NCBI GenBank assembly: GCA_041651455.1
Contig: JBAZJG010000004.1
Coordinates: 72,848 to 136,847, forward strand
Reading direction: 5' to 3'
Length of the DNA stretch: 64,000 bases
DNA from: Candidatus Omnitrophota bacterium
GTDB lineage: Bacteria; Omnitrophota; Gorgyraeia; Pluralincolimonadales; Pluralincolimonadaceae
Shown one piece after another: positions 34,969 through 57,467 of this stretch. The position numbers and the translations under genes were made by a program. Under the pieces are notes generated by a model. It was not told the origin of the DNA. It saw only the letters and a list, made by a program, of their open reading frames with translations, and did not search any database. Within the stretch, counting starts at the first letter, position 1. Each line of letters begins with the position of its first letter.

Positions 34969-35002
34969 TAAACAATGGGGGGCCCGTAATAATCCGGGCC
35001 CC
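34969..35002 (-). terminator. rho-independent terminator after PEP-CTERM gene 35015-35668
   Basis: GGGGCCCG-gattatta-CGGGCCCC hairpin followed by CCATTGTTT. Confidence 0.6.
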
Positions 35003-35014
35003 GCTTGTTAACTG

Positions 35015-35668: not shown

Positions 35669-35691
35669 TATCTCACCTCCTTTCATTTATT

Positions 35692-38126: not shown

Positions 38127-38129
38127 TGG

Positions 38130-39429: not shown

Positions 39430-39462
39430 GTTTTTCTCCTTGTACACCAAATTTAGAAGTTT

Positions 39463-39490
39463 AGTATAACACAAAAGTAAACCGTGTCAA
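39463..39490 (-). promoter_or_regulatory. sigma70-type promoter of the PilZ-exosortase operon (-35 TTGACA, 16 nt spacer, -10 TATACT)
   Basis: Near-consensus hexamers in the 31 bp gap after the araC-like gene. Confidence 0.5.
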
Positions 39491-40384: not shown

Positions 40385-41422
40385 CTATTTAAAATCGAGG
40401 AATCCCGAGTCCTTCATCCACCTGTAGGTGACGACCACGACGACGACAAGCGCCGCGATAGCGTATAACCCTTTTATCCCCCTGAAGCTCAGGGCTATCA
40501 TCCCGAAACATGTAGAAAGGAAATACAGGGAGAGGACCACTCTCCTTTGCGACTCATCCCTGAACAGCAATTTGTGGTGTATGTGCTCTTTGTCGGCCTG
40601 AAATATGTGTTTCTTCTTCGCAAGGCGTCGGACTATCGCCAGCGTCGTATCTATTATAGGAACCCCGAGCGCTATGACCGGGACAAAAAGGGTTATTATC
40701 GTCTTGCTCTTCTGGAAACTTATGACCGATATCGCCGCTAACGCAAAACCGAGGAACATGCTTCCGGGATTGCCCATGAAGATGCGGGCCGGGTAGAAAT
40801 TATACGGCAGGAAACCCGCGCATGCGCCTACGAGCGCAAACGCAAGGAACGCGATCACGTATTCATGCTGGTCGATCGCCGAGAGGAATATGAAGAACGA
40901 GGATATGGCCGACACTCCGGCGGCAAGCCCGTCGAGCCCGTCGAGAAGATTTATCGCGTTAGTTATGCCTATTATCCATATCATCGTGAAGATGACGCCG
41001 AGGAAGCCGAGCGAGACCTTCCCTACGAACGGTATGGTGAACTCCTCGACGACAAATCCGCACGCCACGAGTATAGCAGCGGCTATCACTTGAACGAAGA
41101 GTTTCGGCCTGGCCCTCATCGGTTTTATATCGTCGATGACGCCGAGGATGACTATCATAGCGGCAGCGACGCAAAAACCGGCGTACTTCAGGGAGAACCT
41201 GTCCATAGCTCCGGGGATCGCGTAAAAAGCCACCAGCGTCCCGGCAAAAAAAGCGACGGCGATGGCTACTCCGCCCATCGTCGGCATATTGCCCCTGTGG
41301 ACCTTCCTGCCGCCGGGCTTATCGACAACGCCGAGGCCGATAGCGACGGCCCTTACTATGGGCGTCAGAACCAGCGCAACGGCCCCGGAGACGCAGAATG
41401 TGGCCAGGTAACCCCTAAGCAT
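40385..41422 (-). CDS. undecaprenyl-phosphate sugar-1-phosphate transferase (WecA/MraY family)
   Basis: Ten to eleven TM helices. Motifs NAINLLDGLDGLAAG and DxxK-type. This is the initiating transferase of glycan assembly. Confidence 0.8.
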   Translation of the reverse strand: MLRGYLATFCVSGAVALVLTPIVRAVAIGLGVVDKPGGRKVHRGNMPTMGGVAIAVAFFAGTLVAFYAIPGAMDRFSLKYAGFCVAAAMIVILGVIDDIKPMRARPKLFVQVIAAAILVACGFVVEEFTIPFVGKVSLGFLGVIFTMIWIIGITNAINLLDGLDGLAAGVSAISSFFIFLSAIDQHEYVIAFLAFALVGACAGFLPYNFYPARIFMGNPGSMFLGFALAAISVISFQKSKTIITLFVPVIALGVPIIDTTLAIVRRLAKKKHIFQADKEHIHHKLLFRDESQRRVVLSLYFLSTCFGMIALSFRGIKGLYAIAALVVVVVVTYRWMKDSGFLDFK

Positions 41423-42631
41423 TTATTTTATGCCCCCTTCGAATATCTTTTCCAGGTCCCTTATGTTATTTTCCCAGTTGAAATTTTCTTCCGCATATCT
41501 TCTCGACATCAACGACAACCTTTCCCTGAGCGGCCTGTCTTCCATGACCCTTACGACGTTCCCGGCAAAACTTTCGGGGGAATCCGACATCAGCACTCCG
41601 GTCTCCCGCCCTGCCTGCATCCATTGGGTAGATATCGTCGTAGATACCACCGGCAACCCCATCGCCATGGCTTCCATCACTTTATTCTGCATGCCGGTAG
41701 CCGCCCTTATCGGGCAAACGAGAGCGGCGGCATCGCCCAGATGCACCCTCGTATCTTCAACGGGTCCGGTGACAAACACGCTCCTGCCGTCGGCAAGCTT
41801 TTTTATCTTCTCCGGCGGGTTGGACCCGACTATATAAAAAACGGCGCCGGGCCGTGCTCTTTTGACGGCGGGAAAGATCTTGCCGTAGAAATACAATACC
41901 GCATCCCTGTTCGGAAAACTATGCAAATTGCCTATAAACACTATCTTGTTATCGTCGTATCCCTTCGGAGAAGGACTAAAATACCCGAGGTCTACCCCGT
42001 TCGGGATGATGGATATGCTCTTTTCCGAGGCAAGCGCTTTTTCTGACCTCAGGTCCGCATCCGAAATAAGCAGCGACCTGTCGAAGGAGCGCACGGCTTC
42101 AGGTTCGTACCTGCGGACCTTGAGCCACTCGACCAGGTAGAACAGGTAGAAGACGTGCTTCCTGTATTTCAGCGACCTGTACAGGCTCAGGGACAGCGAA
42201 TCGGTAAGGTCGAGGACCCTTCTCTCATCCTTGCGGCCACGGGCATATTGCGCCATTCTGAGCAGGTGGACATAAATGCCGTCATATTTTTCGGACGACA
42301 TCATGCTATCCGCCTTGTCGCGCATCCTGCCTTCCTTGTAATAAGCGACCTGGAAAGGCACGGCCGTCGGGGATAAAAGCAGGCATTTGGCGTATGAATC
42401 GGCAGGCTTCAAAAGTACGGTCTCTATGCGCGCACAATACTTGCCCAGTTCACCCAGGTATTTCTTTTCTTCTTCGGATTCTATGAAAGATAACAGGTGT
42501 ATGGCATGCCTGGCGGAAAGGTATTTGATGAAATTAAATACCCTGAGCTTATCCCCGCCGTAAGGCGGATATGGAAGGCGTGACGTCAGGAATAATATTT
42601 TCACCGGTTCACCATGCCTTTTGTGCGGCAT
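41423..42631 (-). CDS. glycosyltransferase (GT-B fold, GT1/GT4-like)
   Basis: C-terminal EX7E-like region (QNKVMEAMAMGLPVVST). Confidence 0.8.
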   Translation of the reverse strand: MPHKRHGEPVKILFLTSRLPYPPYGGDKLRVFNFIKYLSARHAIHLLSFIESEEEKKYLGELGKYCARIETVLLKPADSYAKCLLLSPTAVPFQVAYYKEGRMRDKADSMMSSEKYDGIYVHLLRMAQYARGRKDERRVLDLTDSLSLSLYRSLKYRKHVFYLFYLVEWLKVRRYEPEAVRSFDRSLLISDADLRSEKALASEKSISIIPNGVDLGYFSPSPKGYDDNKIVFIGNLHSFPNRDAVLYFYGKIFPAVKRARPGAVFYIVGSNPPEKIKKLADGRSVFVTGPVEDTRVHLGDAAALVCPIRAATGMQNKVMEAMAMGLPVVSTTISTQWMQAGRETGVLMSDSPESFAGNVVRVMEDRPLRERLSLMSRRYAEENFNWENNIRDLEKIFEGGIK

Positions 42632-44291
42632 AAGATATTGAATTTAGATTATTCTTCCATCCATCCCAGGTCGTAACAATAATCCCGAGGCATTTTTTGC
42701 TCCCCTTGGTCACATTCAGCCATTTATCAATATTCCCGGTATCCTTGTAACCCGCAGCGAGATAGTCGAAACCTTGCGAACTATAGAAATTGGGTGAATT
42801 TTTCATCTTAGACAAGTTGTCCGATTCATCATACCACCAGGACATCAGGATAATATCATTTGGCATTATGTAAATAGCGTCCGATGTTTTTCCCGCTTTC
42901 CCGCCGTACTGCTCCTGATAAGAATTGTCGCCACCATTATGCCAAGGATTCACCATGTCATCCCAAATCAATAACCTTGTCCCAAGACCATAGCTCGCCA
43001 CATAATCATTTATTCTTGATAATTCATCAGCCAACAACTCTGCGTTAGATAAATTCCTTTTTAGGCACCGGGAATCTCTATTCATTCCCCTTATTTCATC
43101 GTGGGTTACACTTATATAATGCGGTTGGAATTCCCGCATAATACCTCCTAATACTTTGTTAATGACATTATAAGTGCGTTCTGACGATGGGCAGTATGGA
43201 ACGCTCCATTCGCAATCCTTGCATTTTTTCCCAACATAATCATAGCTTACCAGTATCTCGTCTCCGTCCTCAATATTTCCGTCATTGATTCTTAGTATTC
43301 TTGTAGGTCTGGCATTGGCTGGATAGGGATAGTTCGTTTCGCCGTCTATTATCTTGTAATCGATGTTTTCTCTGAATATGCCGGTACCATTACAATTTTT
43401 TACAACAATATCCGAATCTTCGCTCCTTATTACGTTTATCAGGGCCTCTCCCGCCTTTTGTAACGGGATAGCCTCATTATTAACGAATCTAAATCTCTCG
43501 CTGTCTACGAATATTCCCTCTGCAGTCATGGGGTCTATATAAAACACATCGATCCCCACTCCGAATGTTGATATCTCGGGAACTGCTGTAATATAGTTTT
43601 CTTCTGCGTATGCAAATACCTCCTTTAGCCTTTCCAGGTTATCCCCCCTGTCCAGCTGGTAGTATTTTCCACTTTGAAATATTACAAAGTTCATCTTTTG
43701 GCGCGCCATCATATTTATAAGTTCTTTTGCCTCGTCCAGGTTTGCCCCCATGATATGCACCCCCCTAAACCTGGTCTTTGGATAATCTACGATTTTTACC
43801 GCATCCAAGATCAGTTCCCCTTGCTTTGCTTGGAATAATTGCAGCAATGTCTGAGTCCCGTAAAACACACCTTGCGGCGTGTTCCCGGCGACTACTATAT
43901 GATCCCTGAATATATCTATCACATATCCTTCATCTCCGAGTATTTGTGATGGAATAATTTCATCTTTAAGCTGTGGATTACTATTTTCCAGATCCGTCTC
44001 TAACGCTAAGATAATATTGTTCTTTATGTCTGCGGAAGAGGCCATGCTTACGGGTATAAGCAGGTTCGTGTCCTCAAAGCAACTATTTGAAAATCTGCTC
44101 GCCGTACCGTAAAGATCGCTGTTGCCGGGTAAGCAGATTATTTTCCATTTGTTGTCTACTTTAATAGTGTAATTTTTCGCGATACAGGCCTTTACCTCTG
44201 GCTTTAACCGACTGCCCAGGATGTCCGCAGATTCGATTGAGAAAAGCGGCATTAATAACGCTATCGTAATAAACAGTATCCTTTTATTCAT
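42609..44291 (-). CDS. secreted GH20-like TIM-barrel glycosidase-fold protein
   Basis: Signal peptide. DYPKTRFRGVHIMGANLDEAKELINMMARQKMNFVIFQ resembles the GH20/hexosaminidase N-terminal barrel, but the canonical H-x-H/D-E pair was not confirmed. Lies in the low-GC DNA. Confidence 0.35.
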   Translation of the reverse strand: MNKRILFITIALLMPLFSIESADILGSRLKPEVKACIAKNYTIKVDNKWKIICLPGNSDLYGTASRFSNSCFEDTNLLIPVSMASSADIKNNIILALETDLENSNPQLKDEIIPSQILGDEGYVIDIFRDHIVVAGNTPQGVFYGTQTLLQLFQAKQGELILDAVKIVDYPKTRFRGVHIMGANLDEAKELINMMARQKMNFVIFQSGKYYQLDRGDNLERLKEVFAYAEENYITAVPEISTFGVGIDVFYIDPMTAEGIFVDSERFRFVNNEAIPLQKAGEALINVIRSEDSDIVVKNCNGTGIFRENIDYKIIDGETNYPYPANARPTRILRINDGNIEDGDEILVSYDYVGKKCKDCEWSVPYCPSSERTYNVINKVLGGIMREFQPHYISVTHDEIRGMNRDSRCLKRNLSNAELLADELSRINDYVASYGLGTRLLIWDDMVNPWHNGGDNSYQEQYGGKAGKTSDAIYIMPNDIILMSWWYDESDNLSKMKNSPNFYSSQGFDYLAAGYKDTGNIDKWLNVTKGSKKCLGIIVTTWDGWKNNLNSISYAAQKAW

Positions 44292-45396
44292 TGGCTAATA
44301 TCCGATCGTTTAACAATCTATCTGCTGCCCTTGTAACATCTTCGACCGTTATAGATGTCAGGCAGCGATAATCGTTGCTCTTGCATTTAAAACGTTTCTT
44401 GAGCCATGAATTCCGCTTACCTGCCTCTTCCAATGTGTCTCCTATAAACGGATAATAACAAGGGCAACATTCGTGGTGCTTTTGAAGCACGATGTGACCC
44501 GCTCCCCAGGGCCTATGTATTCGAGGGTCAGTAGGACCAAAAATACTTATTGTGGGTGTCCCAACGGCTGCAGCAATATGCATAGGCGCAGAATTATTGC
44601 ATATAAGAAATATTGATCGTTTAAGCAATGCTGCTGTTTGCAAGATAGAAAGGTTTCCGGCAGCAACGATAGGTTTTCTAGTAATCTTGCCGATCATCTT
44701 ATTTAGCACCGGAAGATCGTCCTGGCCTCCGATTAAAATAACTTTTACCCCTATTTTCTCACTTAAGTAATTGGTTACTTCTATAAATCTTTCTATTGGC
44801 CATCTCCTGTATCGAGAGGTGCCTTCCCCGCAACCGGAGTGGATGGCAATTATTTTATCACTTTTTTCAATTCCTCGTGATTCCAGGAATTTTTCAATAT
44901 AAGTCTCGTCTTCCGCGCTCAAATTCAGCGATACAGCTACGCTATCTGTGTCGGGATTCACTCCAAGTAGTTTCATAAAATCCATGTTCATCAATACCGC
45001 GTGCTTAATTTCACTAATTGGAGCAAGTTTAGTGAATAGCTGGCGGTATTTCTTGAAAATGCTCAGATCCTGTCCGAGTCTTTCTCTCGCCCCCGATAAA
45101 TACGATAAAAAGGCTGTCCTCAATCCTCCCGGATAAGCGCAGATTGATATTTTAAATTTTTTCCTTCTTAATTCATTTATAAGGGATACTATTCTAAAAG
45201 GGTTGTTTGTATCTTTCCTGTCGATGCATATCAGCTCATCAATATCCTTATTCCCGGCCAGAACACCGCTGTTTTGCCTGAAAGTTAGAACAGATATCTC
45301 GATATTCTTGATGTTTTTTCTAAGGCTGCTTATCAGCGGGGTTATCAGGATGGCGTCTCCGATCCCCTGCAATGAAATTATCAATATTCTGCTCAT
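44284..45396 (-). CDS. glycosyltransferase family 9 (heptosyltransferase-like)
   Basis: MSRILIISLQGIGDAILITPLI start and GT9 fold. Confidence 0.75.
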   Translation of the reverse strand: MSRILIISLQGIGDAILITPLISSLRKNIKNIEISVLTFRQNSGVLAGNKDIDELICIDRKDTNNPFRIVSLINELRRKKFKISICAYPGGLRTAFLSYLSGARERLGQDLSIFKKYRQLFTKLAPISEIKHAVLMNMDFMKLLGVNPDTDSVAVSLNLSAEDETYIEKFLESRGIEKSDKIIAIHSGCGEGTSRYRRWPIERFIEVTNYLSEKIGVKVILIGGQDDLPVLNKMIGKITRKPIVAAGNLSILQTAALLKRSIFLICNNSAPMHIAAAVGTPTISIFGPTDPRIHRPWGAGHIVLQKHHECCPCYYPFIGDTLEEAGKRNSWLKKRFKCKSNDYRCLTSITVEDVTRAADRLLNDRILANE

Positions 45397-45415
45397 TGAT
45401 TCGTTTGTCAAGCGA

Positions 45416-46561
45416 TTATCCATTTAGTAAATTTTCATACATAATTTCGTATTTTTCGGTCATTGCCTGGGCTGAATAGTACGACTTTATGCATGCCTTT
45501 GCATTCTTACCATATTCATCTATTAGTTTTTTGTTGCCCAATAACCTTATAATGGCTTCTGCTAGCTCTTTAGTATCTTTTGGTTTAATCAGAATTCCGT
45601 TAAGTCCGTCCTTTATCACCTCTGGAATACCCCCGACGTTTGTAGCAATAACCGCTTTCCCGGAAGCCATCGCCTCAAGCAACGCCATTGGTGTGCCCTC
45701 GCTCAATGAGGGCATGACAAACAAACGAGATATCCCCAGTATATCTTTTACATCATCCCTGTATCCGGTAAATATTACATTGTTCTCAATATTGAGCTCC
45801 GAAGATAGGTCTTCTAATTCCTTTTTAAGGGGCCCGTCCCCAACAAACAAAAACATGACGTTTCGGTACGCCTTTATTACTTCCTTCGCAGCGTTAAGTA
45901 GGTAAAAATGCCCCTTTTGAGGACTGAGTCGGCCTATACAGCATATTATTATCCTATCATCGTTTATCCCAAGTTTATCCTTAACCGTTCCTGCACTAAC
46001 ATCTATGCCATATTTATCCACATCAATACCGTTGGGTATTACCACTATCCTTTCCTTTTTGATGTTTCTGCTTATAAGCGTGTTCTTAATGTCCTCGGAT
46101 ACGGTAATGATCTTCTCGAAGGCCTTTGACTTTATAATTATCGAATCCAGGTACTCGTAAATCCTTGCCCTCAAGACCTCGCCCGCCCAAAGATGCTGTG
46201 TCGAAATCAGGTGTACGCACGTGTTCCTTGTAGCAATGTATCCGATGATGTCACTTTTGTATTCATGGCAGTGTAAGATGTGCGTATTGTGTTTTTTAAA
46301 CAATTTTTTAAGCCGAAATGCACTTGTTATTATGTCATATCTACCAATGGGATTTATCAATTCGGTTGGTACTTCTAAGCGCTCCGCTTCCTTTATAAGC
46401 GGAATAACATCCACGTACGGGTCCTTAAAAGACGCTACAACTGAACGGAACCGGAACCTGTCGATATTCTTGATGATCTGCAGGATCACTCCTTCAGCGC
46501 CCAATATTACATTTGAGCCCCTCACCCCGCTCCTTAAATGCATAACATTTATTGTATTCAT
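45416..46561 (-). CDS. glycosyltransferase (GT-B fold, GT1/GT4-like)
   Basis: EALASGKAVIATNVGGIPEVI motif. Start reset to MNTINVMHL. Confidence 0.8.
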   Translation of the reverse strand: MNTINVMHLRSGVRGSNVILGAEGVILQIIKNIDRFRFRSVVASFKDPYVDVIPLIKEAERLEVPTELINPIGRYDIITSAFRLKKLFKKHNTHILHCHEYKSDIIGYIATRNTCVHLISTQHLWAGEVLRARIYEYLDSIIIKSKAFEKIITVSEDIKNTLISRNIKKERIVVIPNGIDVDKYGIDVSAGTVKDKLGINDDRIIICCIGRLSPQKGHFYLLNAAKEVIKAYRNVMFLFVGDGPLKKELEDLSSELNIENNVIFTGYRDDVKDILGISRLFVMPSLSEGTPMALLEAMASGKAVIATNVGGIPEVIKDGLNGILIKPKDTKELAEAIIRLLGNKKLIDEYGKNAKACIKSYYSAQAMTEKYEIMYENLLNG

Positions 46562-47991
46562 GCTTTTACGCCGCTTTCTGCGTCTTTGCTTTCCGGAAGA
46601 TTGTTCAAAACAACGGAAAGGCCTATTATTATCCAAAATATCATTAAGTCAAGATGCCAGGAAAACAGGTTAACCAAGAAAAACGCCATAAGGCTAATCT
46701 CCAATGCCCCTGAAATCCCAGCTAATAACGCTTCGCCGTTCCTTTCAAGATTTCTTCTCGCTCTTCTCAGTTGGATCCATGCATAATATATGATGGTCAG
46801 GACGAATAATGCCGCCAAAATTCCTGCTTCCGCACCCGTATGCAAAAATAGATTGTGTGCGTGATATAGAACAAATTTTGTTTTTATATCTGCAGATGTA
46901 ATTGCGGCAGTCATAAATTCATATTTAAATAGTCCGTATCCCACCCCCGTAAAGGGGTGTTCTTTGATCATGTTTAATGCCAATTTCCATGCGTCTAAGC
47001 GGCTTGCAATTGAAATTTCCTTCGTATCCGTTATTGTACCCATCCTTTCCCAGTATTCATTCGGTATGAATGGCGTAACAGCCGCAGCTATTAATGCAAA
47101 GATAATGAACAAGAAAATAAGCGTTGATACTTTACGCTTGCCTTTCAATATTATCTGCAAAAATGACAATAACAACACTATGCATAAAGTAGCCATACCA
47201 GCCCTTGAAAACGTCAATACTATCGCCATGAGCAAGGCGCTCAAACACAATAATAAAATAAATTTAAGCAATACGCGTTTTACGTTTATTATCAATGTTA
47301 TTGCTATTGGAACGATAAGGACCAATTCGGCCGCTAAAATGTTCGGATTTTGAGTAGTGCCGAATACCCTCACTACTGAGCCAATTAGGGTCAGCCCTAT
47401 ACCGTGGATATATTGAAAAAAAGCCGCCCCCGATGAAATAACGCCAGAGATTATCAGTATTCCTATGAGTACCAGAATCTGTTTTTTTGTTTTTACTATA
47501 TTAGCTATTATTAAATACAGAATTACGGCTTTGCTCGCTAGTTCGAGATAATCGGGGAAACTATATTCAAAATACCTGAAACAGGCTATAAATAAGGTAG
47601 CTGCTAATCCCAAAACAAAAATGTTTTGCGGTGTTTTTGTAATTTTGAAATCCTTGTAGACAATTATATGCAAAATCCATATCAAAAGAACAAAAAAAGC
47701 CAAATTTCTTGCTATATGAAGCTGCTGAAGAGCGGGGAATAACGCGGTAGGATGCAAATATGCTCCTAACAAAAAGATTATTACTGCCACAAACAGGTCC
47801 AAGAACATCGCAACGAACACACACATGCCTATAAAAAGCAATAATACTATAAAAGGCGGGAGGAAGAGCAGGGATATTCCCATTAAAAATGAGCATACTA
47901 CGATAAACCCTTTTATTAATGCCGGCAGTTCTATTAAGGGCTTTTCTTCTTCCTTAATTATTCTATCCTGTTGGTTCATTTTCGTTTTCAT
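46558..47991 (-). CDS. O-antigen polymerase/ligase-like (Wzy_C domain) membrane protein
   Basis: About twelve TM helices and a periplasmic loop with RAGMATL-type Wzy_C signature. Confidence 0.7.
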   Translation of the reverse strand: MKTKMNQQDRIIKEEEKPLIELPALIKGFIVVCSFLMGISLLFLPPFIVLLLFIGMCVFVAMFLDLFVAVIIFLLGAYLHPTALFPALQQLHIARNLAFFVLLIWILHIIVYKDFKITKTPQNIFVLGLAATLFIACFRYFEYSFPDYLELASKAVILYLIIANIVKTKKQILVLIGILIISGVISSGAAFFQYIHGIGLTLIGSVVRVFGTTQNPNILAAELVLIVPIAITLIINVKRVLLKFILLLCLSALLMAIVLTFSRAGMATLCIVLLLSFLQIILKGKRKVSTLIFLFIIFALIAAAVTPFIPNEYWERMGTITDTKEISIASRLDAWKLALNMIKEHPFTGVGYGLFKYEFMTAAITSADIKTKFVLYHAHNLFLHTGAEAGILAALFVLTIIYYAWIQLRRARRNLERNGEALLAGISGALEISLMAFFLVNLFSWHLDLMIFWIIIGLSVVLNNLPESKDAESGVKA

Positions 47992-49111
47992 AAAGGTCGT
48001 AAATCTTATCTACCATTGATGTTAACTCGAAATCGTTCCTTCTAATGAACTCCTTCGCATTAATTGCCAGATATTCTCTCTTTGCTTTATCCGAAATAAC
48101 GGCATCCAGCGCCGCCTCTAGTCCTTTTATGTCTTTAGGCGCGACCAGAATGCCCGTCTTGTTATTATCAATTAGCTCTGGAAGGCCCCCGATATCGGAC
48201 GCGATTACGGGCTTACCGGAAGCCATTGCCTCTAATGCACAATAGGATAACCCCTCCGATAAAGACGGTATAACAACGATATCTGTAATATACAGTATTT
48301 GCGGAACGTCATTCCTCATTTCTGTAAATATTATTTTTTTATTTATTTCTAATTTGTCCGATAATCCGTTCAGAGTGGAAAAATACGGGTGCCCTTTTGC
48401 TCCTATAAGAAGCAGCTTCGAGTTGGGGTATTTATTCGCTATGTTCTTAAATGCCTCTATTAAATAGAGTTGACCCTTTTCTGGCCGGCCTTGCGCTATA
48501 CAAGAAATCACTATTTCCGATGGAGCAATATTAAATTCTGACCTAAGCGCCCCGGCCTGGACTGTGTAATCGGACCTAAATCTGTCAACACTGAAACCAT
48601 TGTATATCAATTCTATCTTCTCCTTTCTCAGCCCTTTTGAGATAAGGTCGTTTTTAACGGCTCTTGAAATCGCTATTATCTTTTTTGCCTCGCGCGCCAA
48701 AATCCTGTAAAATATCTTCCTTGCTTCGGACCATTTTGATCCTGTTATATGGTGTTGATGCCAATAATATGCTGGTTCATTGTAAATCAAGCGGCTTAAT
48801 AATATGGGGAAATTTGCCAAGTCAAAATGAGAATGAACCACTTCTATGTGTTTCCTTTTCAGAAAAGACACAAATCTTATTATAAACCTTGGGTCAAATC
48901 TATTCTTAATGGGTAACAACACGATTATCCCGCCGACATCCTTAATCTTGTCGGTCAGTTCGATTATCGGGTCCCCCGGAAATACATAATATATACGGAT
49001 ATTATCTTTCTTCGCCCTTTTAGCAACGGCAATCATAACCTCCTCAAAAGATCCCATCTTCTCAGGAGCATACCCGATTGCCCATAATATGGAAGACAAT
49101 TTTCTACTCAT
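47963..49111 (-). CDS. glycosyltransferase (GT-B fold, GT1/GT4-like)
   Basis: EAMASGKPVIASDIGGLPELI motif. Confidence 0.8.
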   Translation of the reverse strand: MSRKLSSILWAIGYAPEKMGSFEEVMIAVAKRAKKDNIRIYYVFPGDPIIELTDKIKDVGGIIVLLPIKNRFDPRFIIRFVSFLKRKHIEVVHSHFDLANFPILLSRLIYNEPAYYWHQHHITGSKWSEARKIFYRILAREAKKIIAISRAVKNDLISKGLRKEKIELIYNGFSVDRFRSDYTVQAGALRSEFNIAPSEIVISCIAQGRPEKGQLYLIEAFKNIANKYPNSKLLLIGAKGHPYFSTLNGLSDKLEINKKIIFTEMRNDVPQILYITDIVVIPSLSEGLSYCALEAMASGKPVIASDIGGLPELIDNNKTGILVAPKDIKGLEAALDAVISDKAKREYLAINAKEFIRRNDFELTSMVDKIYDLYENENEPTG

Positions 49112-49122
49112 GTTCCATCCTG

Positions 49123-50031
49123 TTAGCCTAAAACACAATACCTTATTATGCCCAAATGGCCTTTCATTCTTTCATTTAAATCTCCCCTTCTTACGCCAAC
49201 AACATAAAACGGGAGATAGCATATTATCTTAAGGCCTGATGTTAGCGTTGCGCAACATTTATATACCAATGCGGGGAATGCGCCGTATAGTTTTTTTAGC
49301 AGCTTATGCATACCCTTATAAGCTTCTATTGACATTTCCGCTTTACACTGCTGACTGCTCCCTTTCATATAATGGATTATGCTCGCATCCGGCATATAGA
49401 ATATCTTCATCTTGTTCTTTTTTATTTGATAGCAAAGATCTATATCGTCTCCATACATGAAATACCTTTCATCCAATAGCCCTATTCTTTCAAAAGTGGT
49501 CTTTCTTACCATCATGCAGCATCCTGAAAGCACTTCTATTTCATGGGTATACTCATAATCATTGGCTTTCGTTTTTGACTCATCCAGCATTAACCGTTCT
49601 GGTAATATCAGGCGCATTATTTCCTTCCCCAGGGAGGGGACATTTCTGAAGTATGGATGCAAAGTACCGTCGCCATTGAGAATCTTACAGCCTAGCGCTG
49701 CCGCCTGCTGATTCTCCGCCATATACCTTACCATTTTATCCGCAGCACTATCGAGCATGACTGTATCGGGGTTTAGTATTAATATATAGTCGCCCTTGCT
49801 TACTTTTATAGCTTGGTTATTTGCTTTATTGAAGCCGAGGTTCTCGATATTCTTAATTAAAATTACTTCCTTATATTCCGAGGATAACATTTCCTGGCTT
49901 CCGTCTTTTGAGTTATTATCTACGACTATTATTTCGTAGGTAATCTCTTTTGTCGTCTTACGAATTGACTCGATGCATTGCTTGAGAAGCAATTGGGTAT
50001 TCCAATTCACTATCGCAATGGAAAGATCCAT
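49123..50031 (-). CDS. glycosyltransferase family 2
   Basis: SIAIVNWNT ... VVDNNSKDGS ... DxD, GT-A fold. Confidence 0.85.
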   Translation of the reverse strand: MDLSIAIVNWNTQLLLKQCIESIRKTTKEITYEIIVVDNNSKDGSQEMLSSEYKEVILIKNIENLGFNKANNQAIKVSKGDYILILNPDTVMLDSAADKMVRYMAENQQAAALGCKILNGDGTLHPYFRNVPSLGKEIMRLILPERLMLDESKTKANDYEYTHEIEVLSGCCMMVRKTTFERIGLLDERYFMYGDDIDLCYQIKKNKMKIFYMPDASIIHYMKGSSQQCKAEMSIEAYKGMHKLLKKLYGAFPALVYKCCATLTSGLKIICYLPFYVVGVRRGDLNERMKGHLGIIRYCVLG

Positions 50032-50121: not shown

Positions 50122-50976
50122 TTAAAGGTGCCGGTGAATATACTCGGGAATATGGTATTCTATGCCTGTAAGAACATATCCTAGGATATTCGCACCGACA
50201 CTTTTTAGCACACTTTCCGCTCGCGCAACGACCTCCCTGCGGGTCCTGCCCGCCCTAATGACCAGCACTGTCCCGTCCGCGATATGGCTTAAGATACGGG
50301 CGTCGGAATACGGTATGACCGCCGGCGTATCCAGTATTATCCTGTCGTACTTGCCCTTGAGCTCGAATAGCACGTCTTTCATCTTCTGCGAGCTGAGTAA
50401 TTCATTCGGGTTGCCGTGGATATGCCCGGCAGGTATGACAAAAAGGTTCCTGGTGTCGCAGGCTACCGTTACTCCGGGAATGTCCGCGGCACCCGACAAC
50501 AACTCCCCGAGCCCCCTTTCCGAGGATATGCCCATCAGGCCTCCGATAGACGGTTTCCTGAGATTGCAATCGATAAGGAGTGTGGGTTTACCGGAATTTT
50601 GCGCCGTTACAATGGCAAGATTGGCCACCGCAATACTTTTTCCTTCGCCGCTGGACGCGCTCGTAATGATCACCGACCGAAGCTTATTCTCCCTTTCAGG
50701 GCAGAATACATGCGCATATAACGTATGGAATTGCTCGGCTACAGGACTGCCGGGATTATGGTATGCGACTATCTTCCTGTTTACCGCCGACGACAGCGCT
50801 ACTTCCGTGCGGACCTGCACCGGTGTCTCGCTTACGGGGCGCTGCGCAGGAGCGGGGTTGCCTATAGCGGGGGTTGTAGGGGTAGAGGGGCCGGCCTGGA
50901 AGGCCTTGCCTTTCTCCTCGGCAGCCCTTTTTATAGCTTCGTTTATCTTGTTAATTCCGTTGCCGTTATTTTGCAT
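50122..50976 (-). CDS. polysaccharide co-polymerase BY-kinase (tyrosine autokinase, CpsD/Wzc C-terminal type)
   Basis: Walker A SASSGEGKSIAVANLA, Walker A' and B, Tyr residues at the C-terminus (GIEYHIPEYIHRHL). Confidence 0.8.
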   Translation of the reverse strand: MQNNGNGINKINEAIKRAAEEKGKAFQAGPSTPTTPAIGNPAPAQRPVSETPVQVRTEVALSSAVNRKIVAYHNPGSPVAEQFHTLYAHVFCPERENKLRSVIITSASSGEGKSIAVANLAIVTAQNSGKPTLLIDCNLRKPSIGGLMGISSERGLGELLSGAADIPGVTVACDTRNLFVIPAGHIHGNPNELLSSQKMKDVLFELKGKYDRIILDTPAVIPYSDARILSHIADGTVLVIRAGRTRREVVARAESVLKSVGANILGYVLTGIEYHIPEYIHRHL

Positions 50977-52597
50977 TCCGCCCCACCCCTGCCGCTTTTT
51001 CCTTGTTGGCGATCTCTATTACCTTCTTCCTGACCTCATCCTGGCTAACGTTATAGCTTATGAAGGCTACGGTGAAAAGTGCCACGTATAGCGCTATTAA
51101 AAATATCGCCAGCCCGCGCTGCTTCGCTGCTTTAGAGGCCGCCTCATTCTTATCGACGATAGCTGAAATACCGCCGAATATCTCATGCTTCAGGAATGGC
51201 CTCGCGTCTTCTACGCCCCTGAACGAATGGTCCGCGAACTCCGCCAGAAAAACACATCCAAAGCCCGAAAGAACACCGAGTATAAAAGCGACTACTCCTA
51301 TCATGAGAACTTCTGGTTTCGAAGGTTTTAGCGGTAACCTTGGCTCGTCAAGAACAGTGTACTTCGTGCTTTTGTCCTGGGCCTCCGCAGAGGTAAGCTT
51401 GTTTTCCTCGATTTTTAACATCAGCATTTTATATACATTCTCATTCACCTCGGTATCTCTGGTCAGGAGCGCAAGTTCCCTCTCCTGCTCGGGCAGGGTC
51501 TGTATCTTTGATTCGTAGTCCTTTACCAGCTTCGAGAGCTGTTCTCTCCTCTTCCTAAGGTCGTTGACCTCTTTTTCGGCGTCTTTTACCTTCTGGCTCA
51601 GCCTTTGAAAGAATAGCGGGGCTGTGGTAGATGTATCGCTGTCAACCATCTTCTCAGTCTCAAGTCTTAGCTTCTCCCTGACATCCTCCATCTGAACCTG
51701 AAGGGAGGCGAGGTCTGATGATTGCGGATTTTCCGCCATCGTTTCATCGTGCCGTGATTGCAGGTTTTGCAATTGTGAATTAAGGCGTGAAACCGCAGGA
51801 TTAAGCTCCATCATCTCTTCGGATATAATTACAGGATCCTTTCCGGACATCTGTCTTTTCAAAAGGTCGAGCTTGCGCTCGGACTCTTTCATGCTCATCT
51901 CAACGGCGGTTAGCGATGTCTGGTAGCTCGTCAGCATCGAGACGTTATAGTCAAGCTCTTTGCCCGGCAGCTGCATCGGGTATTGGGCGCGGAAATCGAA
52001 CAGTTTCTTTTCCGATTCCTCGAGCTTCTTCTTGTAAATCTTCGCTTGTTCTTCTGCAAATTTTATCGCCGTAGCAGCTTGCGCTGTCTTTTTTGATTTG
52101 TTTTCGTCGATGAATATCTCTATTATGGTCTTTGTGATGTTCCTCGCCGCAATGGGATCCTTGTCCTCGTAAGATACCTGAAAGACCTCGGGAGACCTCA
52201 TCTTCACTTCGGAGCGCTTCCTTATGCCCAGAAGCATCTTTTCGTACATTACCTGGTCGGTCACGCCTTTCTTAAGGTCAAGGGTATCCACTAGCTTGAT
52301 GAGATTAGGGTAGCTCAATATTTTTTCGGTCAATGTCTTAAGTTGTTCCGCAAGCGTCGGGGGTTGCCCGGTTGAAGACGTGTATGCCAGCTCTTTAGTG
52401 GCGAGGGGGTTTACCGGTTTTTCTTCTTCGACGAGGATTAGTACTGAGGATTTATAAAATTTTGGGAGAAAAAAACTGCCTATAGAGGCAGTAAAAAATA
52501 CCATGACGAATGGGAGCATGAAAAACCACCTGCGGTGAAAGATTATCTGGAGATAATCCCTGATAGAACCCTGCCCCTGCCCAGGCGCTGTAGTCAT
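50966..52597 (-). CDS. polysaccharide chain-length determinant protein (Wzz/GumC; PEP-CTERM-locus type)
   Basis: Two TM helices flanking a long coiled-coil periplasmic domain. Abuts the BY-kinase gene. Confidence 0.75.
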   Translation of the reverse strand: MTTAPGQGQGSIRDYLQIIFHRRWFFMLPFVMVFFTASIGSFFLPKFYKSSVLILVEEEKPVNPLATKELAYTSSTGQPPTLAEQLKTLTEKILSYPNLIKLVDTLDLKKGVTDQVMYEKMLLGIRKRSEVKMRSPEVFQVSYEDKDPIAARNITKTIIEIFIDENKSKKTAQAATAIKFAEEQAKIYKKKLEESEKKLFDFRAQYPMQLPGKELDYNVSMLTSYQTSLTAVEMSMKESERKLDLLKRQMSGKDPVIISEEMMELNPAVSRLNSQLQNLQSRHDETMAENPQSSDLASLQVQMEDVREKLRLETEKMVDSDTSTTAPLFFQRLSQKVKDAEKEVNDLRKRREQLSKLVKDYESKIQTLPEQERELALLTRDTEVNENVYKMLMLKIEENKLTSAEAQDKSTKYTVLDEPRLPLKPSKPEVLMIGVVAFILGVLSGFGCVFLAEFADHSFRGVEDARPFLKHEIFGGISAIVDKNEAASKAAKQRGLAIFLIALYVALFTVAFISYNVSQDEVRKKVIEIANKEKAAGVGRNAK

Positions 52598-52600: not shown

Positions 52601-54217
52601 TTACTCTTCCTTCATGTCCAGGATTCTCATCAGGTCCTTCTGCATTGCTTTCGACCGTTTTTCCGTGACGGGCGGTGTCAGCTCTACTCCGCCGGACTTC
52701 TCTATTTCGTGCTCTACGATCGGGTCGATCTTCCGTGTCCTGTCAATGCTCTCCTGGTATTTTTGCCTGGATATGTTCTGGCGGTTATCGCTTGTAAGTA
52801 TATGGGGCGTTATAAAAACCAGCACCTCTTTTTTCACGTCCTGGTACGACTTGTTCTGGAACAACAGCCCTATTATCGGGATGTCGCCGATCAGGGGCAC
52901 TTTGTTTATCGTGCTCTTCTTGTCGTTCTTAATGAGCCCGCCGAGTATTATCGTCTCGCCGTCCTTGACCATCATCGTCGTATCTGCCTGCGTCGTGTCC
53001 TTGGCGACGACGTTATCAACCTCGGCGACCCTTCTTGCCGTACTGACCTCGGGATGTATCTTCATCGTCACATAATTATCTTCGCCTATCTGCGGGGTCA
53101 CTTCCAGCTTGATACCTACGTCGACATATTTGATGTCCTGGACCAGCAATTTCGTGACCGGGTCCGTCGTAGCTACCGCGTAGGGCTCGCTGCTACCTAC
53201 GAGGATGTTCGCCGCTTCTCCGTCGATGACAACAATGCGCGGGCTCGAGAGGACCTCCGTGTTCGCATCGCTCTTGAGCGCTTCCAATGTCACCGTATAC
53301 TCGTCGGGGGTCAGGCCGCCTATCTTATATATGCCTCCGGTCCCGCCGGTGGCCAGGTTGATCCCGAAATCGGTCAGGAGATCGAGCGCTCCGGGGTTGT
53401 GGTGCGGGTCCTCCCCGGTCCTGTCATATGCATGCTCCCATTCAATCCCGAATTTCATAGTATCATCGAGAGTGATCTCCACAATCATCGCTTCTATCAT
53501 GACCTGCTTATGCTGGGAGTCCCATCCCTCGATGAAGCTGTCTATATTCTTCAGGATCACCGGGGTGGCCCTAACGACTATCGTGTTCGTCCTCTCATCT
53601 ATATATACATCTCCTTTTTCTTTCGGTATCAGCTGCGTAAGCTTGGCTTCCATGTCCGCCGCCTTGGAATAAAGGAGCTTATACTTCTTTATCTCCGTCT
53701 GTTGGTCGAGCTGCATCAGCGCTTCCTCGACCTCTTTAACCTTTTCCGGCGTGTCGGTTATTATTACCTGGTTACTCTTCTCGTTCGTCTCTATCCTGCC
53801 GCGCGCGGTCTTCATCGAAAGGAGTATCCGCTTAAGGTCCGCGACATCCGTGTAATTCAGCGTTATGACCTTCGTCTGCAGGTTAACGAACCTCTCCTGC
53901 TGCTGGGTATCCTGGTATGAATATACGGTTATTATCCCGTCGGTAACCGAATAGAGGTAGTTGTTCGCCTTCAGGACCGAATCGAGCGCCTGGACTACCG
54001 TGACCTTGTCGAGTTTCACGGAGACATTCCCGGTCACGTTAGTGCTAAGCACGACGCTCATCCCGCTCTGGTCCGCGATCATCTTAAGGACCTCTTCTAT
54101 GCTGACGTTCTGGACATCGAGCGTGACTTCTCCGTCTTCGGCGAACAGCGGGCAACGGGAGACCAAAAGGAAGACCGAAAATACAAGGCAGAACAACAGT
54201 TGTTTACTGAATCTCAT
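52601..54217 (-). CDS. secretin (GspD/PilQ family outer-membrane channel)
   Basis: Signal peptide, N0 and secretin-N (NolW-like) domains, and C-terminal secretin domain (VPLIGDIPIIGLLFQNKSYQDVKKEVLVFITPHIL). Confidence 0.75.
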   Translation of the reverse strand: MRFSKQLLFCLVFSVFLLVSRCPLFAEDGEVTLDVQNVSIEEVLKMIADQSGMSVVLSTNVTGNVSVKLDKVTVVQALDSVLKANNYLYSVTDGIITVYSYQDTQQQERFVNLQTKVITLNYTDVADLKRILLSMKTARGRIETNEKSNQVIITDTPEKVKEVEEALMQLDQQTEIKKYKLLYSKAADMEAKLTQLIPKEKGDVYIDERTNTIVVRATPVILKNIDSFIEGWDSQHKQVMIEAMIVEITLDDTMKFGIEWEHAYDRTGEDPHHNPGALDLLTDFGINLATGGTGGIYKIGGLTPDEYTVTLEALKSDANTEVLSSPRIVVIDGEAANILVGSSEPYAVATTDPVTKLLVQDIKYVDVGIKLEVTPQIGEDNYVTMKIHPEVSTARRVAEVDNVVAKDTTQADTTMMVKDGETIILGGLIKNDKKSTINKVPLIGDIPIIGLLFQNKSYQDVKKEVLVFITPHILTSDNRQNISRQKYQESIDRTRKIDPIVEHEIEKSGGVELTPPVTEKRSKAMQKDLMRILDMKEE

Positions 54218-56231
54218 TCGTGATCTCCTTTGTGGCGCGGACGGTCTTGTTCTTGCCTTCCGCCTTTGCCCTGTACAGCGCCCTGTCGACGTACTTTATC
54301 AGGTCGGTCTTATCCAAAGCGATATCCGGATAGCTCGCGACGCCGAAACTTGCGGTCAGGCCTATTACATTGTCCTTGTTGCCGAACGCGTAATTCTTTA
54401 TGACCATCCTGATCCTGTCCGCGAGTATATAGGCGCCCTCGAGGTCGGTCTCCGGCAGGATGACGGCGAACTCTTCCCCGCCGTACCTTGCCACGACATC
54501 GACTTCCCTGCATATCTTCCTCAATATCTGCGCGATCTCTTTAAGGACCTCGTCGCCCATCGGATGGCCGTAGCTGTCATTGACCTTCTTGAACCCGTCG
54601 AGGTCCATCATTATGAGGCCGAACGTCTGCCTGTACCTTGCCGAACGCAGTATCTCCTTGTCCATCGCCTCGCTGAAATACCTGTAGACATAAAGCCCCG
54701 TCAGCCCGTCGGTGATCGACAGCTCCGTGATCTTCTTGTGCAATAACGTATTGTTTATCGCTATGCTGGAATGGCGGGAAATTATCGAGAATATCCTTAG
54801 GTCTTCGCCGCTGAAAGCGTTCGGGAATGAATTTGTCACCGCAAGCATGCCGATCGGCCTGTCGCCGGCCGTTAGAAGGTGGGCCTGGAACGAGCTGAGA
54901 ATATTCCTGTTTTCAGAAAAAGAATCGCTCAGGTTGTTGCTATCGGCCTGATCGATCGAAACCTGTTCCGGCAACAGTCTCCCCCCTGTTAACCTATTGA
55001 ACGTTTCTATGATCTTAAGCTTAAAACTGTCGACCTCCTTCTGCGAAGCGGGGTATTTAACCTCCACTATCACGCCCGTCTTCTTTGTCTCGTCGACAAA
55101 TAACAAACCGCACAGATGACAATCCAGGGAGCGTTCTATTATCTCCAGTATCGCATCTATAATTTCTTTATAATCAAGCCTTGCGTATATTATATTACTA
55201 ACTTCCTGCGATATTGTCAACTCATATAATTCGTCATCGAGCGAACGGGCTATATCGGCGAATATCTTCTTCCCGGTCTTGAGTTTTTCTATCTGTGTGT
55301 TCGCTTCCTCGAGGCGTTTTTGCCAATGGGACGATTCTATGGCTATCGATATCTCGTTCGTCAGGATCGTGAGCAGCGAAAGGTCGTATTCGGTGAATTG
55401 TTCTTTTGATGCCTTGTTATTCACGTTTATGACCCCGATGACCTTGTCCTTTACCCGTATCGGGGCGCTCAGGAGGGATGAATTGTAATACCTGTTCGAA
55501 TTCTGCCTCGAGAAACGCTCGTCTGATTCGACGTCCTTGATGAGCAGCGGGCTGCCGGACTTCGCAACCCAGCCGGATATGCCCCTGCCGACCTTGATCC
55601 TTGTCTTGTTCGCAAGGTCTTCGCTCAATCCCCTCGACGCGCTTATTATAAGTTCCTGGGAATCGTCATCGATGAGCATGAGCGATCCAAGCTCAGAGCT
55701 CAACATGTTGGTTATCTTCTCGAGCACCTCGCCAAGGATATCCCTGGCATGGGATGAGTGCAGGCTCTGCGACGCCTGATAAGCATCTACGAGCCTGGCC
55801 ATGAGCTTCTTGAACTGCTCGCTTTGGGACTGGAATTTGTTCGTATCTACGCGGCCTTTAATCTTCTCTATCGCGGCGTCTATATTCGCGTCAAAATCGT
55901 TCTTGTTGGTAAACCTTATGACGCTCTGCCCCCGTTGGGGTCTCATCCCGAGGGACCTGTACGCTTCCTTCTCGTTGGTTATACAGATCAGGAGCGGGAT
56001 ATCGGAGGTACGCGGGTCATCTTTAAGCAGTTTATATACGCAAAATCCGTTTATGTCCGTGACGGCAGGATTCAGCAGGATAAGGTCGGGCATCTCCTCG
56101 CAGACAAGCTCTATCCCATCGAGGCCGTTCGAGGCGCGCAGTACGTTATAGTCCCTGCCCGCAAGGACAGCTGACATGTCCTGGGCTATGTTCTGGCTTT
56201 GCTCTATTATTACGGCTTTTTTCCTGTCCAA
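54204..56231 (-). CDS. REC(pseudo-receiver)-GAF-GAF-GGDEF diguanylate cyclase
   Basis: GGEEF active site, two GAF domains. N-terminal receiver has Asn (LILLNP) at the phospho-acceptor position. Start reassigned to TTG at 56231 (SD GGAGG). Confidence 0.75.
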   Translation of the reverse strand: MDRKKAVIIEQSQNIAQDMSAVLAGRDYNVLRASNGLDGIELVCEEMPDLILLNPAVTDINGFCVYKLLKDDPRTSDIPLLICITNEKEAYRSLGMRPQRGQSVIRFTNKNDFDANIDAAIEKIKGRVDTNKFQSQSEQFKKLMARLVDAYQASQSLHSSHARDILGEVLEKITNMLSSELGSLMLIDDDSQELIISASRGLSEDLANKTRIKVGRGISGWVAKSGSPLLIKDVESDERFSRQNSNRYYNSSLLSAPIRVKDKVIGVINVNNKASKEQFTEYDLSLLTILTNEISIAIESSHWQKRLEEANTQIEKLKTGKKIFADIARSLDDELYELTISQEVSNIIYARLDYKEIIDAILEIIERSLDCHLCGLLFVDETKKTGVIVEVKYPASQKEVDSFKLKIIETFNRLTGGRLLPEQVSIDQADSNNLSDSFSENRNILSSFQAHLLTAGDRPIGMLAVTNSFPNAFSGEDLRIFSIISRHSSIAINNTLLHKKITELSITDGLTGLYVYRYFSEAMDKEILRSARYRQTFGLIMMDLDGFKKVNDSYGHPMGDEVLKEIAQILRKICREVDVVARYGGEEFAVILPETDLEGAYILADRIRMVIKNYAFGNKDNVIGLTASFGVASYPDIALDKTDLIKYVDRALYRAKAEGKNKTVRATKEITNEIQ

Positions 56232-56377
56232 CCTCTGCCTCCGTACAGCAAAAAGGAGCCCCAAATTTCCGGCTCCGGTTTTGATTGTTATATTAACAAT
56301 ACCATATTAAAATACCCCAATTCGGGGTTTATGTCAAGGAAATTATATTGTTATTTAATAGTAATTTGTTGGGGGTA

Positions 56378-56622: not shown

Positions 56623-57027
56623 TTATCTTATCTTTACTTGCCCGCCTTTATACAGGTAGACACCTCCGGTGCCGTGGTTAGGGCATGTCACTATAACTAT
56701 CGTAGAGGCCGTGGTTGCGCTAGGCGCCGATGTATAGCTATAAGCCGCCGAGTTGCTCGGACATGAGAAAACCTGCGTATCGTCTATATACGTAGGCGCC
56801 GTTGTCAAAGCATTCTGGAGTGTGGCTGCCACCGGATATTTTTCGTTATTATCCGCGGTATACATCATAAGTGCAGACCCTATCTGCTTCAGGTTGTTCG
56901 CGCATGTAGTCTTCCTGGCCTGTTCCCTAGCCCTGCCGAGCGCCGGCATAAGTAAACCAGCTAGTATAATTATGATTGCCATAACGACCAACAGCTCGAT
57001 AAGGGTGAAACCTTTTGCTTTGCGCAT
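56623..57027 (-). CDS. type II secretion pseudopilin / type IV pilin-like protein (copy 1)
   Basis: [26 protein letters not shown] has the prepilin peptidase site G|FTLIE. 134 aa. Near-identical to the upstream copy. Confidence 0.75.
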
Positions 57028-57062: not shown

Positions 57063-57467
57063 CTATCTGATCCTTACATGCCCGCCTTTATACAGGTAGA
57101 CACCTCCGGTGCCGTGGTTAGGGCATGTCACTATAACTATCGTAGAGGCCGTGGTTGCGCTAGGCGCCGATGTATAGCTATAAGCCGCCGAGTTGCTCGG
57201 ACATGAGAAAACCTGCGTATCGTCTATATACGTAGGCGCCGTTGTCAAAGCATTCTGGAGTGTGGCTGCCACCGGATATTTTTCGTTATTATCCGCGGTA
57301 TACATCATAAGTGCAGACCCTATCTGCTTCAGGTTGTTCGCGCATGTAGTCTTCCTGGCCTGTTCCCTAGCCCTGCCGAGCGCCGGCATAAGTAAACCAG
57401 CTAGTATAATTATGATTGCCATAACGACCAACAGCTCGATAAGGGTGAAACCTTTTGCTTTGCGCAT
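57063..57467 (-). CDS. type II secretion pseudopilin / type IV pilin-like protein (copy 2)
   Basis: Same as copy 1 except the last residues (GGHVRIR vs GGQVKIR). Confidence 0.75.

Follow-up and report, generated by a model that had tools for sequence, protein, structure and literature searches.

A secretin gene holds the OPX position in an XrtA-type polysaccharide operon conserved in Candidatus Omnitrophota

The canonical export module of the exosortase A (XrtA)/PEP-CTERM system comprises an outer-membrane polysaccharide exporter (OPX, TIGR03027), a polysaccharide co-polymerase or chain-length determinant (PCP, TIGR03007), an autokinase (TIGR03018), and the TIGR03016 and TIGR03015 proteins (Haft 2006, PMC1569441). 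How the exosortase/PEP-CTERM cargo and the associated polysaccharide cross the outer membrane has been an open question since that 2006 description. PilQ/GspD secretins are needed for the secretion of exopolymer slime by the "slime nozzles" that filamentous cyanobacteria and Myxococcus possess (Zuckerman, So & Hoiczyk 2025, PMC12475490), GlyGly-CTERM (rhombosortase) and MYXO-CTERM (myxosortase) proteins cross the outer membrane through type II secretion systems (T2SS; PMC11980579, PMC3237569), and the EpsY/EpsX-type translocons of Myxococcus combine a class-3 OPX with a β-barrel (PMC9601211, bioRxiv 10.1101/2022.02.11.480155). Here, we describe a secretin gene at positions 52601-54217 of a 64,000-nucleotide stretch of a Candidatus Omnitrophota genome (GCA_041651455.1, contig JBAZJG010000004.1, positions 72,848 to 136,847; hereafter, the window), which stands directly before the PCP gene of an XrtA-type cluster, where an OPX gene would be looked for.

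The window genes around the secretin all lie on the same strand, and their junctions are tight. The secretin gene overlaps that of a GGDEF response regulator by 14 nt and is followed by the PCP gene after a gap of 3 nt, and the PCP gene overlaps that of a bacterial tyrosine kinase (BY-kinase) by 11 nt, which bears out the claim of an earlier reading of these letters (the sequence-only reading) that the secretin is co-directional and contiguous with a chain-length determinant and a BY-kinase. The best NCBIfam model for the PCP is TIGR03007 (274.8 bits, cut-off 278.85), and the BY-kinase scores 144.6 bits with TIGR01007, above the cut-off of 108, and 144.9 bits with the XrtA autokinase model TIGR03018 (cut-off 230.65; E 2e-42). 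In the canonical XrtA locus of Vibrio alfacsensis pYa108 (L082), the order is OPX (TIGR03027-type, 216 aa), PCP, XrtA autokinase, and TIGR03016 outer-membrane protein, and the earlier reading was right that an OPX would normally be expected in this slot. An Omnitrophota contig (L091:9232-11832) likewise encodes an OPX, a PCP (TIGR03007, 307 bits, above the cut-off), and a TIGR03015 ATPase; the canonical OPX-PCP module exists in Omnitrophota too, and the phylum has both export solutions. The window secretin and its PCP-linked relatives, which we call class A, hold the gene slot of the OPX in L082 and L091, directly 5′ of the PCP and BY-kinase genes and co-oriented with them.

Every plausible coding open reading frame (ORF) of at least 120 aa in the window was compared with Pfam and NCBIfam, and none matched OPX/Wza (Poly_export, SLBB), TIGR03016, TIGR03015, GspC/E/F/L/M, or PilM/N/O/P, in agreement with the earlier statement that the window holds no GspE/F/L/M genes. 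We also built an OPX hidden Markov model (HMM) from seven proteobacterial sequences and searched six-frame translations of the window and 79 loci (1.18 Mb). It had no match there (best E = 1.4), nor in three loci from the XrtA side of such clusters (L087-L089), and it recovers the L091 OPX, our positive control, at E 1e-28; as further controls, probes made from the Vibrio PCP and kinase matched 40 and 36 loci, with E values down to 6e-33. A phmmer search with E. coli Wza as the lone probe, also without a match, was judged too insensitive and was superseded by the HMM. TIGR03027, TIGR03016, and TIGR03015 were not found in class-A loci, and the controls, L082 and L091, yield all three. The local absence of OPX from class-A modules is solid and, judged by sequence, the secretin is a positional analogue of OPX, not a member of the OPX family. 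Alongside the next-nearest PCP clade (P0348, 33% identity), neither an OPX nor a secretin was found.

The product of 52601-54217 is a genuine secretin. The ORF matches Pfam Secretin PF00263 at 155.8 bits (cut-off 27.5) over residues 313-474, and it also carries two Secretin_N domains (81.8 bits), STN/N0 (40.6 bits), and GspD_N0 (25.3 bits). With the NCBIfam GspD model TIGR02517, it scores 282.2 bits, below the equivalog cut-off of 351.35, and with the PilQ model TIGR02515, it scores 274.3 bits, a near miss of the cut-off of 284.35. It falls short of both values and is claimed by no curated equivalog, and NCBI names its relatives merely "secretin N-terminal domain-containing protein". A phmmer search of the PDB returned ExeD, PilQ, and GspD at E values of 1e-40 to 1e-32 (ExeD 2e-40, PilQ 5e-40). 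An AlphaFold2 monomer model built on 77 homologues (pLDDT 74) depicts a signal peptide, the domains N0 (residues 30-99), N1 (114-170), and N3 (175-232), a β-domain and barrel (238-474) in which the loop 253-297 is poorly predicted, and a helical C-tail (478-537); Pfam and the model agree on three α/β N-domains, compared with the four (N0-N1-N2-N3) of GspD. The top Foldseek matches in the PDB are PulD, GspD, ExeD, InvG, and PilQ, at E 1e-26 to 1e-23 (PulD 6hcg, 1e-26; GspD 5zdh, 3.5e-25; ExeD 6i1x; PilQ 6w6m), with low TM scores (∼0.35) because the domain placement in the monomer model differs from that in the solved protomers. The gate and lip motifs (GGL 426-428, P441, G444, P447, G450, and F453) are invariant in the secretin alignment. 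The assignment to the GspD/PilQ type made in the sequence-only reading is supported.

Homologues at 44-96% identity come almost all from Candidatus Omnitrophota metagenome-assembled genomes. In five homologue loci (96, 69, 59, 50, and 50% identity), which we read from precomputed gene and Pfam tables, the secretin is followed by a GNVR-type PCP, a ParA-like kinase, and then Wzx, Wzy, and glycosyltransferases; the genes 5′ of the secretin differ among the five, and no Poly_export protein was found within 10 kb in any of them. A survey of one genome per GTDB species yielded 73 loci, which we then probed by tblastn with the window proteins and the PilO/PilP-like proteins of a paralogue locus. Class A (47-96% identity) accounts for 39 non-redundant loci, including three from genomes labelled Auribacterota, UBP3, or unclassified. 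The PCP gene comes next in 39/39, at a median distance of 6 nt (−11 to 186), and the BY-kinase follows the PCP in all 27 loci whose downstream sequence exceeds 3 kb. Upstream genes and glycan cassettes are reshuffled among these loci while the secretin-PCP-BY-kinase order is invariant; a GGDEF regulator lies immediately 5′ of the secretin in many, not all, of them. Class-A secretins in the surveyed loci never adjoin PilM/N/O/P or GspC/E/F/L/M. Class B (44-48% identity) has PilO and a PilP/T2SSC-like gene immediately upstream and no PCP. Class C (40-44% identity; four genomes, L066, L057, L058, and L063) has a T2SS-like operon joined to xrtA-epsI, in the order GspC-like PDZ, PilM/N fusion, PilO, PilP-like, secretin, PDZ, GspE/PilB ATPase (MshEN), XrtA, EpsI, polyprenyl-phosphate sugar transferase, and PEP-CTERM; such a physical union of secretion motor and exosortase module seems not to have been described.

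The phylogeny of the secretins, which the sequence-only reading had proposed as a check, follows gene context one to one. In a neighbor-joining tree of 74 secretins (500 columns), the PCP-linked secretins form exactly one clade (bootstrap 94/100), which branches within the Omnitrophota secretins linked to PilO/PilP and whose sister is a class-B sequence, and no secretin outside the clade has a PCP neighbor. This match points to a single old duplication, inherited together with the PCP and BY-kinase. Class A would then be a lineage-specific paralogue that arose once by duplication of an Omnitrophota PilM/N/O/P-associated secretin, an origin toward which we lean slightly. At least 10 genomes carry a class-A secretin together with a class-B one, at separate places or on separate contigs (e.g., GCA_004196255.1, P0069 and P0116). 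The earlier reading had itself named a scenario that would overturn it, in which this gene is the displaced secretin of a T2SS or type IV pilus (T4P) that lacks its own. We reject such a displaced pilus secretin as the main explanation, given the paralogues coexisting in at least 10 related genomes and the exact clade and context match; the window's own subclade shows no case of both paralogues.

Comparison of class A with the pilus-type paralogues gives the lowest identity in the C-tail (8%), with the N-domains and barrel at 37-58%. Only four positions, each constant inside either class, discriminate the classes (K45R, R109Q, D124K, and K201E), all in N0, N1, or N3, and no class-specific changes were found in the pore or gate. 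The signal is weak, and the four N-domain residues would fit a changed periplasmic partner better than a remodelled pore.

Linkage of the class-A secretin to the exosortase is also seen in relatives. In GCA_004196255.1 (SDBU01000001.1), a class-A secretin (∼273.5 kb) and XrtA (∼291.9 kb) lie 17 kb apart in one co-directional cluster whose tail has the order of the window (glycosyltransferases, WecA, unknown membrane protein, TPR protein, XrtA, EpsI, PEP-CTERM), and a third contig carries secretin P0021 and exosortase P0131 with the same tail order. The XrtA cluster of L089, on the 1.99-Mb contig Ga0378408_0000001 (1621086-1641826), has a tail like the window's; no class-A secretin or PCP of this contig was found among the homologue lists, an exact-match scan of metagenome contigs was empty, and the head of this cluster may differ from that of the window. 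Taken together, the class-A clusters and class C constitute two independent Omnitrophota arrangements that tie a secretin to the exosortase system. The distances are unequal, as xrtA lies 15-17 kb from the class-A secretin, whereas the PCP directly adjoins it.

These findings suggested to us that the class-A secretin has been recruited as the outer-membrane exit of the XrtA/exopolysaccharide (EPS)/PEP-CTERM system, where it would replace OPX and its TIGR03016 partner, a reading to which we assign a probability of about 0.55. The secretin-based outer-membrane route put forward in the sequence-only reading thus survives as the best reading, resting on a secretin-PCP-BY-kinase unit found in 39 non-redundant loci down to 47% identity, and the involvement that it gave to the pilins is uncertain. 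We envisage the following sequence of events. The c-di-GMP-producing response regulator, secretin, PCP, and BY-kinase would be co-transcribed and translationally coupled, as the overlaps and 3-nt gaps, conserved phylum-wide, indicate. From what is known of the families, undecaprenyl-linked units made by the WecA-like protein and glycosyltransferases would be polymerized by the Wzy-like protein under the control of the PCP and BY-kinase. The periplasmic crown of the PCP oligomer may dock on the secretin's N-terminal rings (N0-N1-N3), taking over from the PilP/GspC adaptor that serves the paralogues; all four class-discriminating residues lie in these domains. The polymer, possibly with exosortase-processed PEP-CTERM proteins attached, would leave via the gated secretin barrel, and c-di-GMP control could act via the GGDEF regulator and a PilZ protein. 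With respect to cargo, the tight PCP/BY-kinase coupling and the lack of a local OPX favor a glycan, the class-C loci and the T2SS precedent of the GlyGly-CTERM and MYXO-CTERM proteins favor PEP-CTERM proteins, and it is plausible for a polymer to be exported through a secretin, as slime secretion in other bacteria depends on one (PMC12475490). A more daring version, which we regard as quite unlikely, would make the secretin a wide-bore, motor-free exit, docked on the PCP, for protein-polysaccharide conjugates, with the exosortase joining PEP-CTERM proteins to the PCP-held glycan; the conjugate, too bulky for a Wza-type pore, would be extruded via the secretin. If true, PCP and secretin together would make up a trans-envelope machine of a new class, and the passage of exosortase substrates across the outer membrane would have its first concrete explanation.

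Several points weigh against the recruitment of the secretin as the exit. All of the evidence is comparative, a Wzx flippase was not found in the window's cluster, and the PCP, XrtA, and stp1 matches are slightly under the curated equivalog cut-offs. Given that Omnitrophota possess OPX genes, an OPX may lie elsewhere in the genome. Conservation of the barrel and gate equals that in the pilus-type paralogues, so that the channel is presumably gated, and no gene of the operon obviously opens the gate. A second (class-B) secretin was seen in 0/14 genomes of the window's subclade (≥65% identity) compared with 10/22 elsewhere (Fisher p = 0.003), and with pilins upstream and no second secretin in the subclade, the window's secretin may work for a pilus or pseudopilus, either in addition or exclusively. 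This last point feeds an explanation that we hold to be unlikely, though it deserves a hearing, in which the secretin gates PEP-CTERM proteins, not glycan, and is driven by a T2SS-like pseudopilus, assembled from pilins like the upstream tandem pair, whose motor and platform genes lie elsewhere, the PCP adjacency reflecting co-regulation of protein and polysaccharide export. It accords with the class-C loci, where a complete T2SS-like operon sits directly before xrtA-epsI and PEP-CTERM genes, with the passage of other C-terminal sorting tags across the outer membrane by T2SS (PMC11980579), and with a gate region that is the same as in the pilus-type paralogues. It accords less well with class-A secretins that avoid PilM/N/O/P, GspC, and GspE and adjoin the PCP gene at a median of 6 nt with xrtA 15-17 kb off, with a glycan left with no local OPX, and with most class-A loci having no pilins.

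The lack of another secretin in the window's subclade, the score near the PilQ cut-off (274 vs 284), and the ∼45% identity to PilO/PilP-linked paralogues would also suit an ordinary T4P/T2SS secretin that lies beside EPS genes only through an accidental, inherited gene order and is functionally uncoupled from them. We consider such an accident very improbable, as the near-zero spacing is kept to 47% identity despite reshuffled flanks, clade and context correspond throughout, a pilus-type paralogue coexists in at least 10 genomes, and the secretin sits in the OPX slot of an otherwise canonical module. It is also improbable, in our estimation, that the glycan leaves via an OPX or other translocon encoded elsewhere while the secretin exports matrix-remodelling enzymes (GH20-like, GH123/GH26-like, and carbohydrate-binding module (CBM) proteins). 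OPX-PCP modules are encoded in Omnitrophota, and glycoside-hydrolase-like and CBM proteins are regular members of the clusters, but the OPX-linked PCP of L091 shares only ∼30% identity with the class-A PCP and stands among partners of its own, and the hydrolase genes vary by locus against an invariant secretin-PCP-BY-kinase unit.

The wider cluster (Table 1) continues after the BY-kinase with the glycan cassette, the GH20-like protein, the TIGR03087-like glycosyltransferase, the WecA-type transferase, the AraC/PocR regulator, the PilZ protein, the membrane protein, the TPR lipoprotein, the exosortase, EpsI, and the PEP-CTERM genes, and its 3′ boundary is thrS. Across window positions 44000-50100, which hold the glycosyltransferase/Wzy-like cassette, the GC content is 39-41%, compared with ∼50% in the flanks, and a 96%-identical relative (L001) has another cassette in the same place (methyltransferase, Wzx, GT4, Wzy); the region looks like a swapped serotype-type cassette. 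The TIGR03087-like glycosyltransferase scores 303 bits (cut-off 316.65). The exosortase scores 148.6 bits with TIGR02602 (cut-off 105.55) and 171 bits with the XrtA-specific TIGR03109 (cut-off 208), and EpsI scores 81.5 bits with TIGR02914 (cut-off 42.8). The pair of membrane-protein and TPR-lipoprotein genes precedes the exosortase gene in relatives also (L087:8336-10020, L088:8276-9999, L089:7695-9915). The ∼280-aa polytopic membrane protein had no family match, and the TPR lipoprotein could be a secretin pilotin or accessory factor.

Table 1. Features of the window and of one related locus (coordinates without a prefix are window positions)
Feature	Coordinates	Strand	Basis or remark
Class-A secretin, 538 aa	52601..54217	-	ATG start, AGGAG-type ribosome-binding site; Pfam, NCBIfam, AlphaFold2, Foldseek, PDB, clade and context
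PCP (chain-length determinant), XrtA type, 543 aa, GNVR and two transmembrane-like segments near C-terminus	50966..52597	-	TIGR03007, Pfam GNVR/Wzz
Split-type BY-kinase (tyrosine autokinase), 284 aa	50122..50976	-	TIGR01007, TIGR03018
Response regulator carrying two GAF domains and a diguanylate cyclase (GGDEF) domain, likely first operon gene	54204..56264	-	Pfam/NCBIfam scans, junctions
Two near-identical prepilin-type genes (N_methyl and DUF1559)	56623..57027 and 57063..57467	-	Membership in system uncertain
Low-GC glycan cassette: GT2, GT4, Wzy/O-antigen-ligase-like (TIGR03097-like), GT4, GT9	44284..50031	-	
GH20-like protein, TIGR03087-like XrtA-system glycosyltransferase, WecA/MraY-family priming transferase	40385..44291	-	Same order in L087, L088, L089
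AraC/PocR-type regulator	39506..40336	-	Profile scan
Weak PilZ-domain protein	38965..39474	-	Profile scan
Polytopic membrane protein (280 aa) and TPR lipoprotein (282 aa, lipobox ISGC, BamD/YbgF-like)	37278..38972	-	TPR lipoprotein gene 37278-38126
Exosortase (XrtA-like) and EpsI	35809..37277	-	TIGR02602, TIGR03109, TIGR02914
PEP-CTERM cargo region: five PEP-CTERM proteins, CBM-like proteins, LacI regulator, two ∼570-590-aa proteins	24688..35686	-	
PEP-CTERM proteins	29781-30413, 25953-26579	-	Pfam PF07589 matches
PEP-CTERM proteins	35015-35686, 29150-29770, 24688-25329	-	NCBIfam matches, all sub-cut-off
Protein with prepilin N-terminus and HEATH motif, 396 aa	2143..3333		HEATH at residue 301
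Class-C operon and exosortase module	L066:6446-18800		Also L057, L058, L063

Among the PEP-CTERM genes are those of two ∼570-590-aa proteins (27237-28937 and 32517-34289) that have no family match, one with the lipoprotein signal VSGC. Their products share motifs such as SWYIFAKNKFNP / CWYIFAKENFNP and are probably, by these motifs, paralogues of an unknown secreted family. Elsewhere in the window, PheT (18418-20469) aligns to the bacterial model only from position 158 and apparently has no N-terminal tRNA-binding domain; a stand-alone gene for a 106-aa tRNA_bind protein lies just upstream of the class-A secretin in two relatives (L004:9460-9780, L005:9616-9936).

The sequence-only reading had counted two sets of pilin genes as parts of the system. 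The tandem pilins are real genes, identical at 132/134 aa and 401/405 nt, yet a gap of 358 nt, which holds a promoter-like site and a hairpin, separates them from the GGDEF-secretin operon, and pilin genes upstream of the module are restricted to the window's subclade and absent from most class-A loci. The pair is a very recent duplication, and in relatives the copy number at this place ranges from one to three, with three in L001. Beyond the pilins, further upstream, lie the housekeeping genes coaC, coaB, gmk, yicC, and ndk. The other proposed part, the pilin-HExxH protein of 2143-3333, is likewise uncertain as a member; its gene is 50 kb off amid housekeeping genes. The product starts with a prepilin cleavage/methylation signal, continues in an extended linker rich in Gly, Ser, and Pro, and finishes in a domain where one HEATH motif occurs, and it had no family match besides N_methyl; from this layout, it could be a pilin-tethered metalloprotease. 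The gene is flanked by those of a PsbP-like and a TPR protein.

Full-text literature searches turned up no account of a PCP/BY-kinase operon that includes a secretin. This role is unmentioned in the founding paper on PEP-CTERM (PMC1569441), the Omnitrophota genomics paper (PMC10066038), and the epsSMASH preprint, and the OPX classification preprint (bioRxiv 10.1101/2022.02.11.480155) has "secretin" once, meaning the WzpB β-barrel. Papers on Sphingomonas LM7 were rejected as precedent, the matched word being "secreting". On the comparative data, we take this to be a previously undescribed form of the XrtA-family pathway (Wzx/Wzy type, with PCP and BY-kinase) in which a secretin stands in for OPX. 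The linkage is the first that we found between a dedicated secretin paralogue and a PCP/BY-kinase operon, it is conserved across Omnitrophota, and it offers a defined protein pair for study, the secretin N-domains and the periplasmic domain of the PCP. It also touches the question of whether secretins can export nonprotein polymers, as has been proposed from the cyanobacterial and myxobacterial slime nozzles. If our reading is true, Wzx/Wzy-type pathways can exchange their outer-membrane component for a channel of an unrelated family.

Set beside the known systems, the locus resembles the canonical XrtA module in the order and probable families of the PCP and BY-kinase and in having an exosortase, EpsI, a TIGR03087-like glycosyltransferase, and multiple PEP-CTERM proteins in the cluster. 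It differs in that a secretin instead of an OPX precedes the PCP, TIGR03016 and TIGR03015 were not found, and a GGDEF response regulator and an AraC-type regulator are present in place of PrsK/PrsR. With the Wza-Wzc system of E. coli colanic acid and group 1 capsules (PMC12881504, PMC13469938), it shares an outer-membrane channel gene directly 5′ of the PCP/BY-kinase and, we expect, a periplasm-spanning conduit of PCP and outer-membrane channel, whereas it lacks homology to Wza (no Poly_export/SLBB) and its kinase is a separate polypeptide; compared with Wza, secretins form a 12-15-subunit β-barrel with a much wider, gated lumen. The translocons of the EpsY/EpsX type likewise build the outer-membrane step of Wzx/Wzy pathways from parts other than full-length Wza, but they keep an OPX and a PgaA/BcsC-like barrel, neither of which was found here. 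As for GlyGly-CTERM and MYXO-CTERM proteins, a C-terminal sorting tag is coupled to a secretin route, and the class-C loci show the equivalent linkage for the exosortase; the sortase family is another one, and no T2SS motor or platform lies beside the window secretin. In the slime nozzles (PMC12475490), as here, a secretin is implicated in the export of a nonprotein exopolymer. There, it is the general T4P/T2SS secretin, unlinked to a PCP/BY-kinase, whereas in Omnitrophota it is a dedicated paralogue inside the polysaccharide operon.

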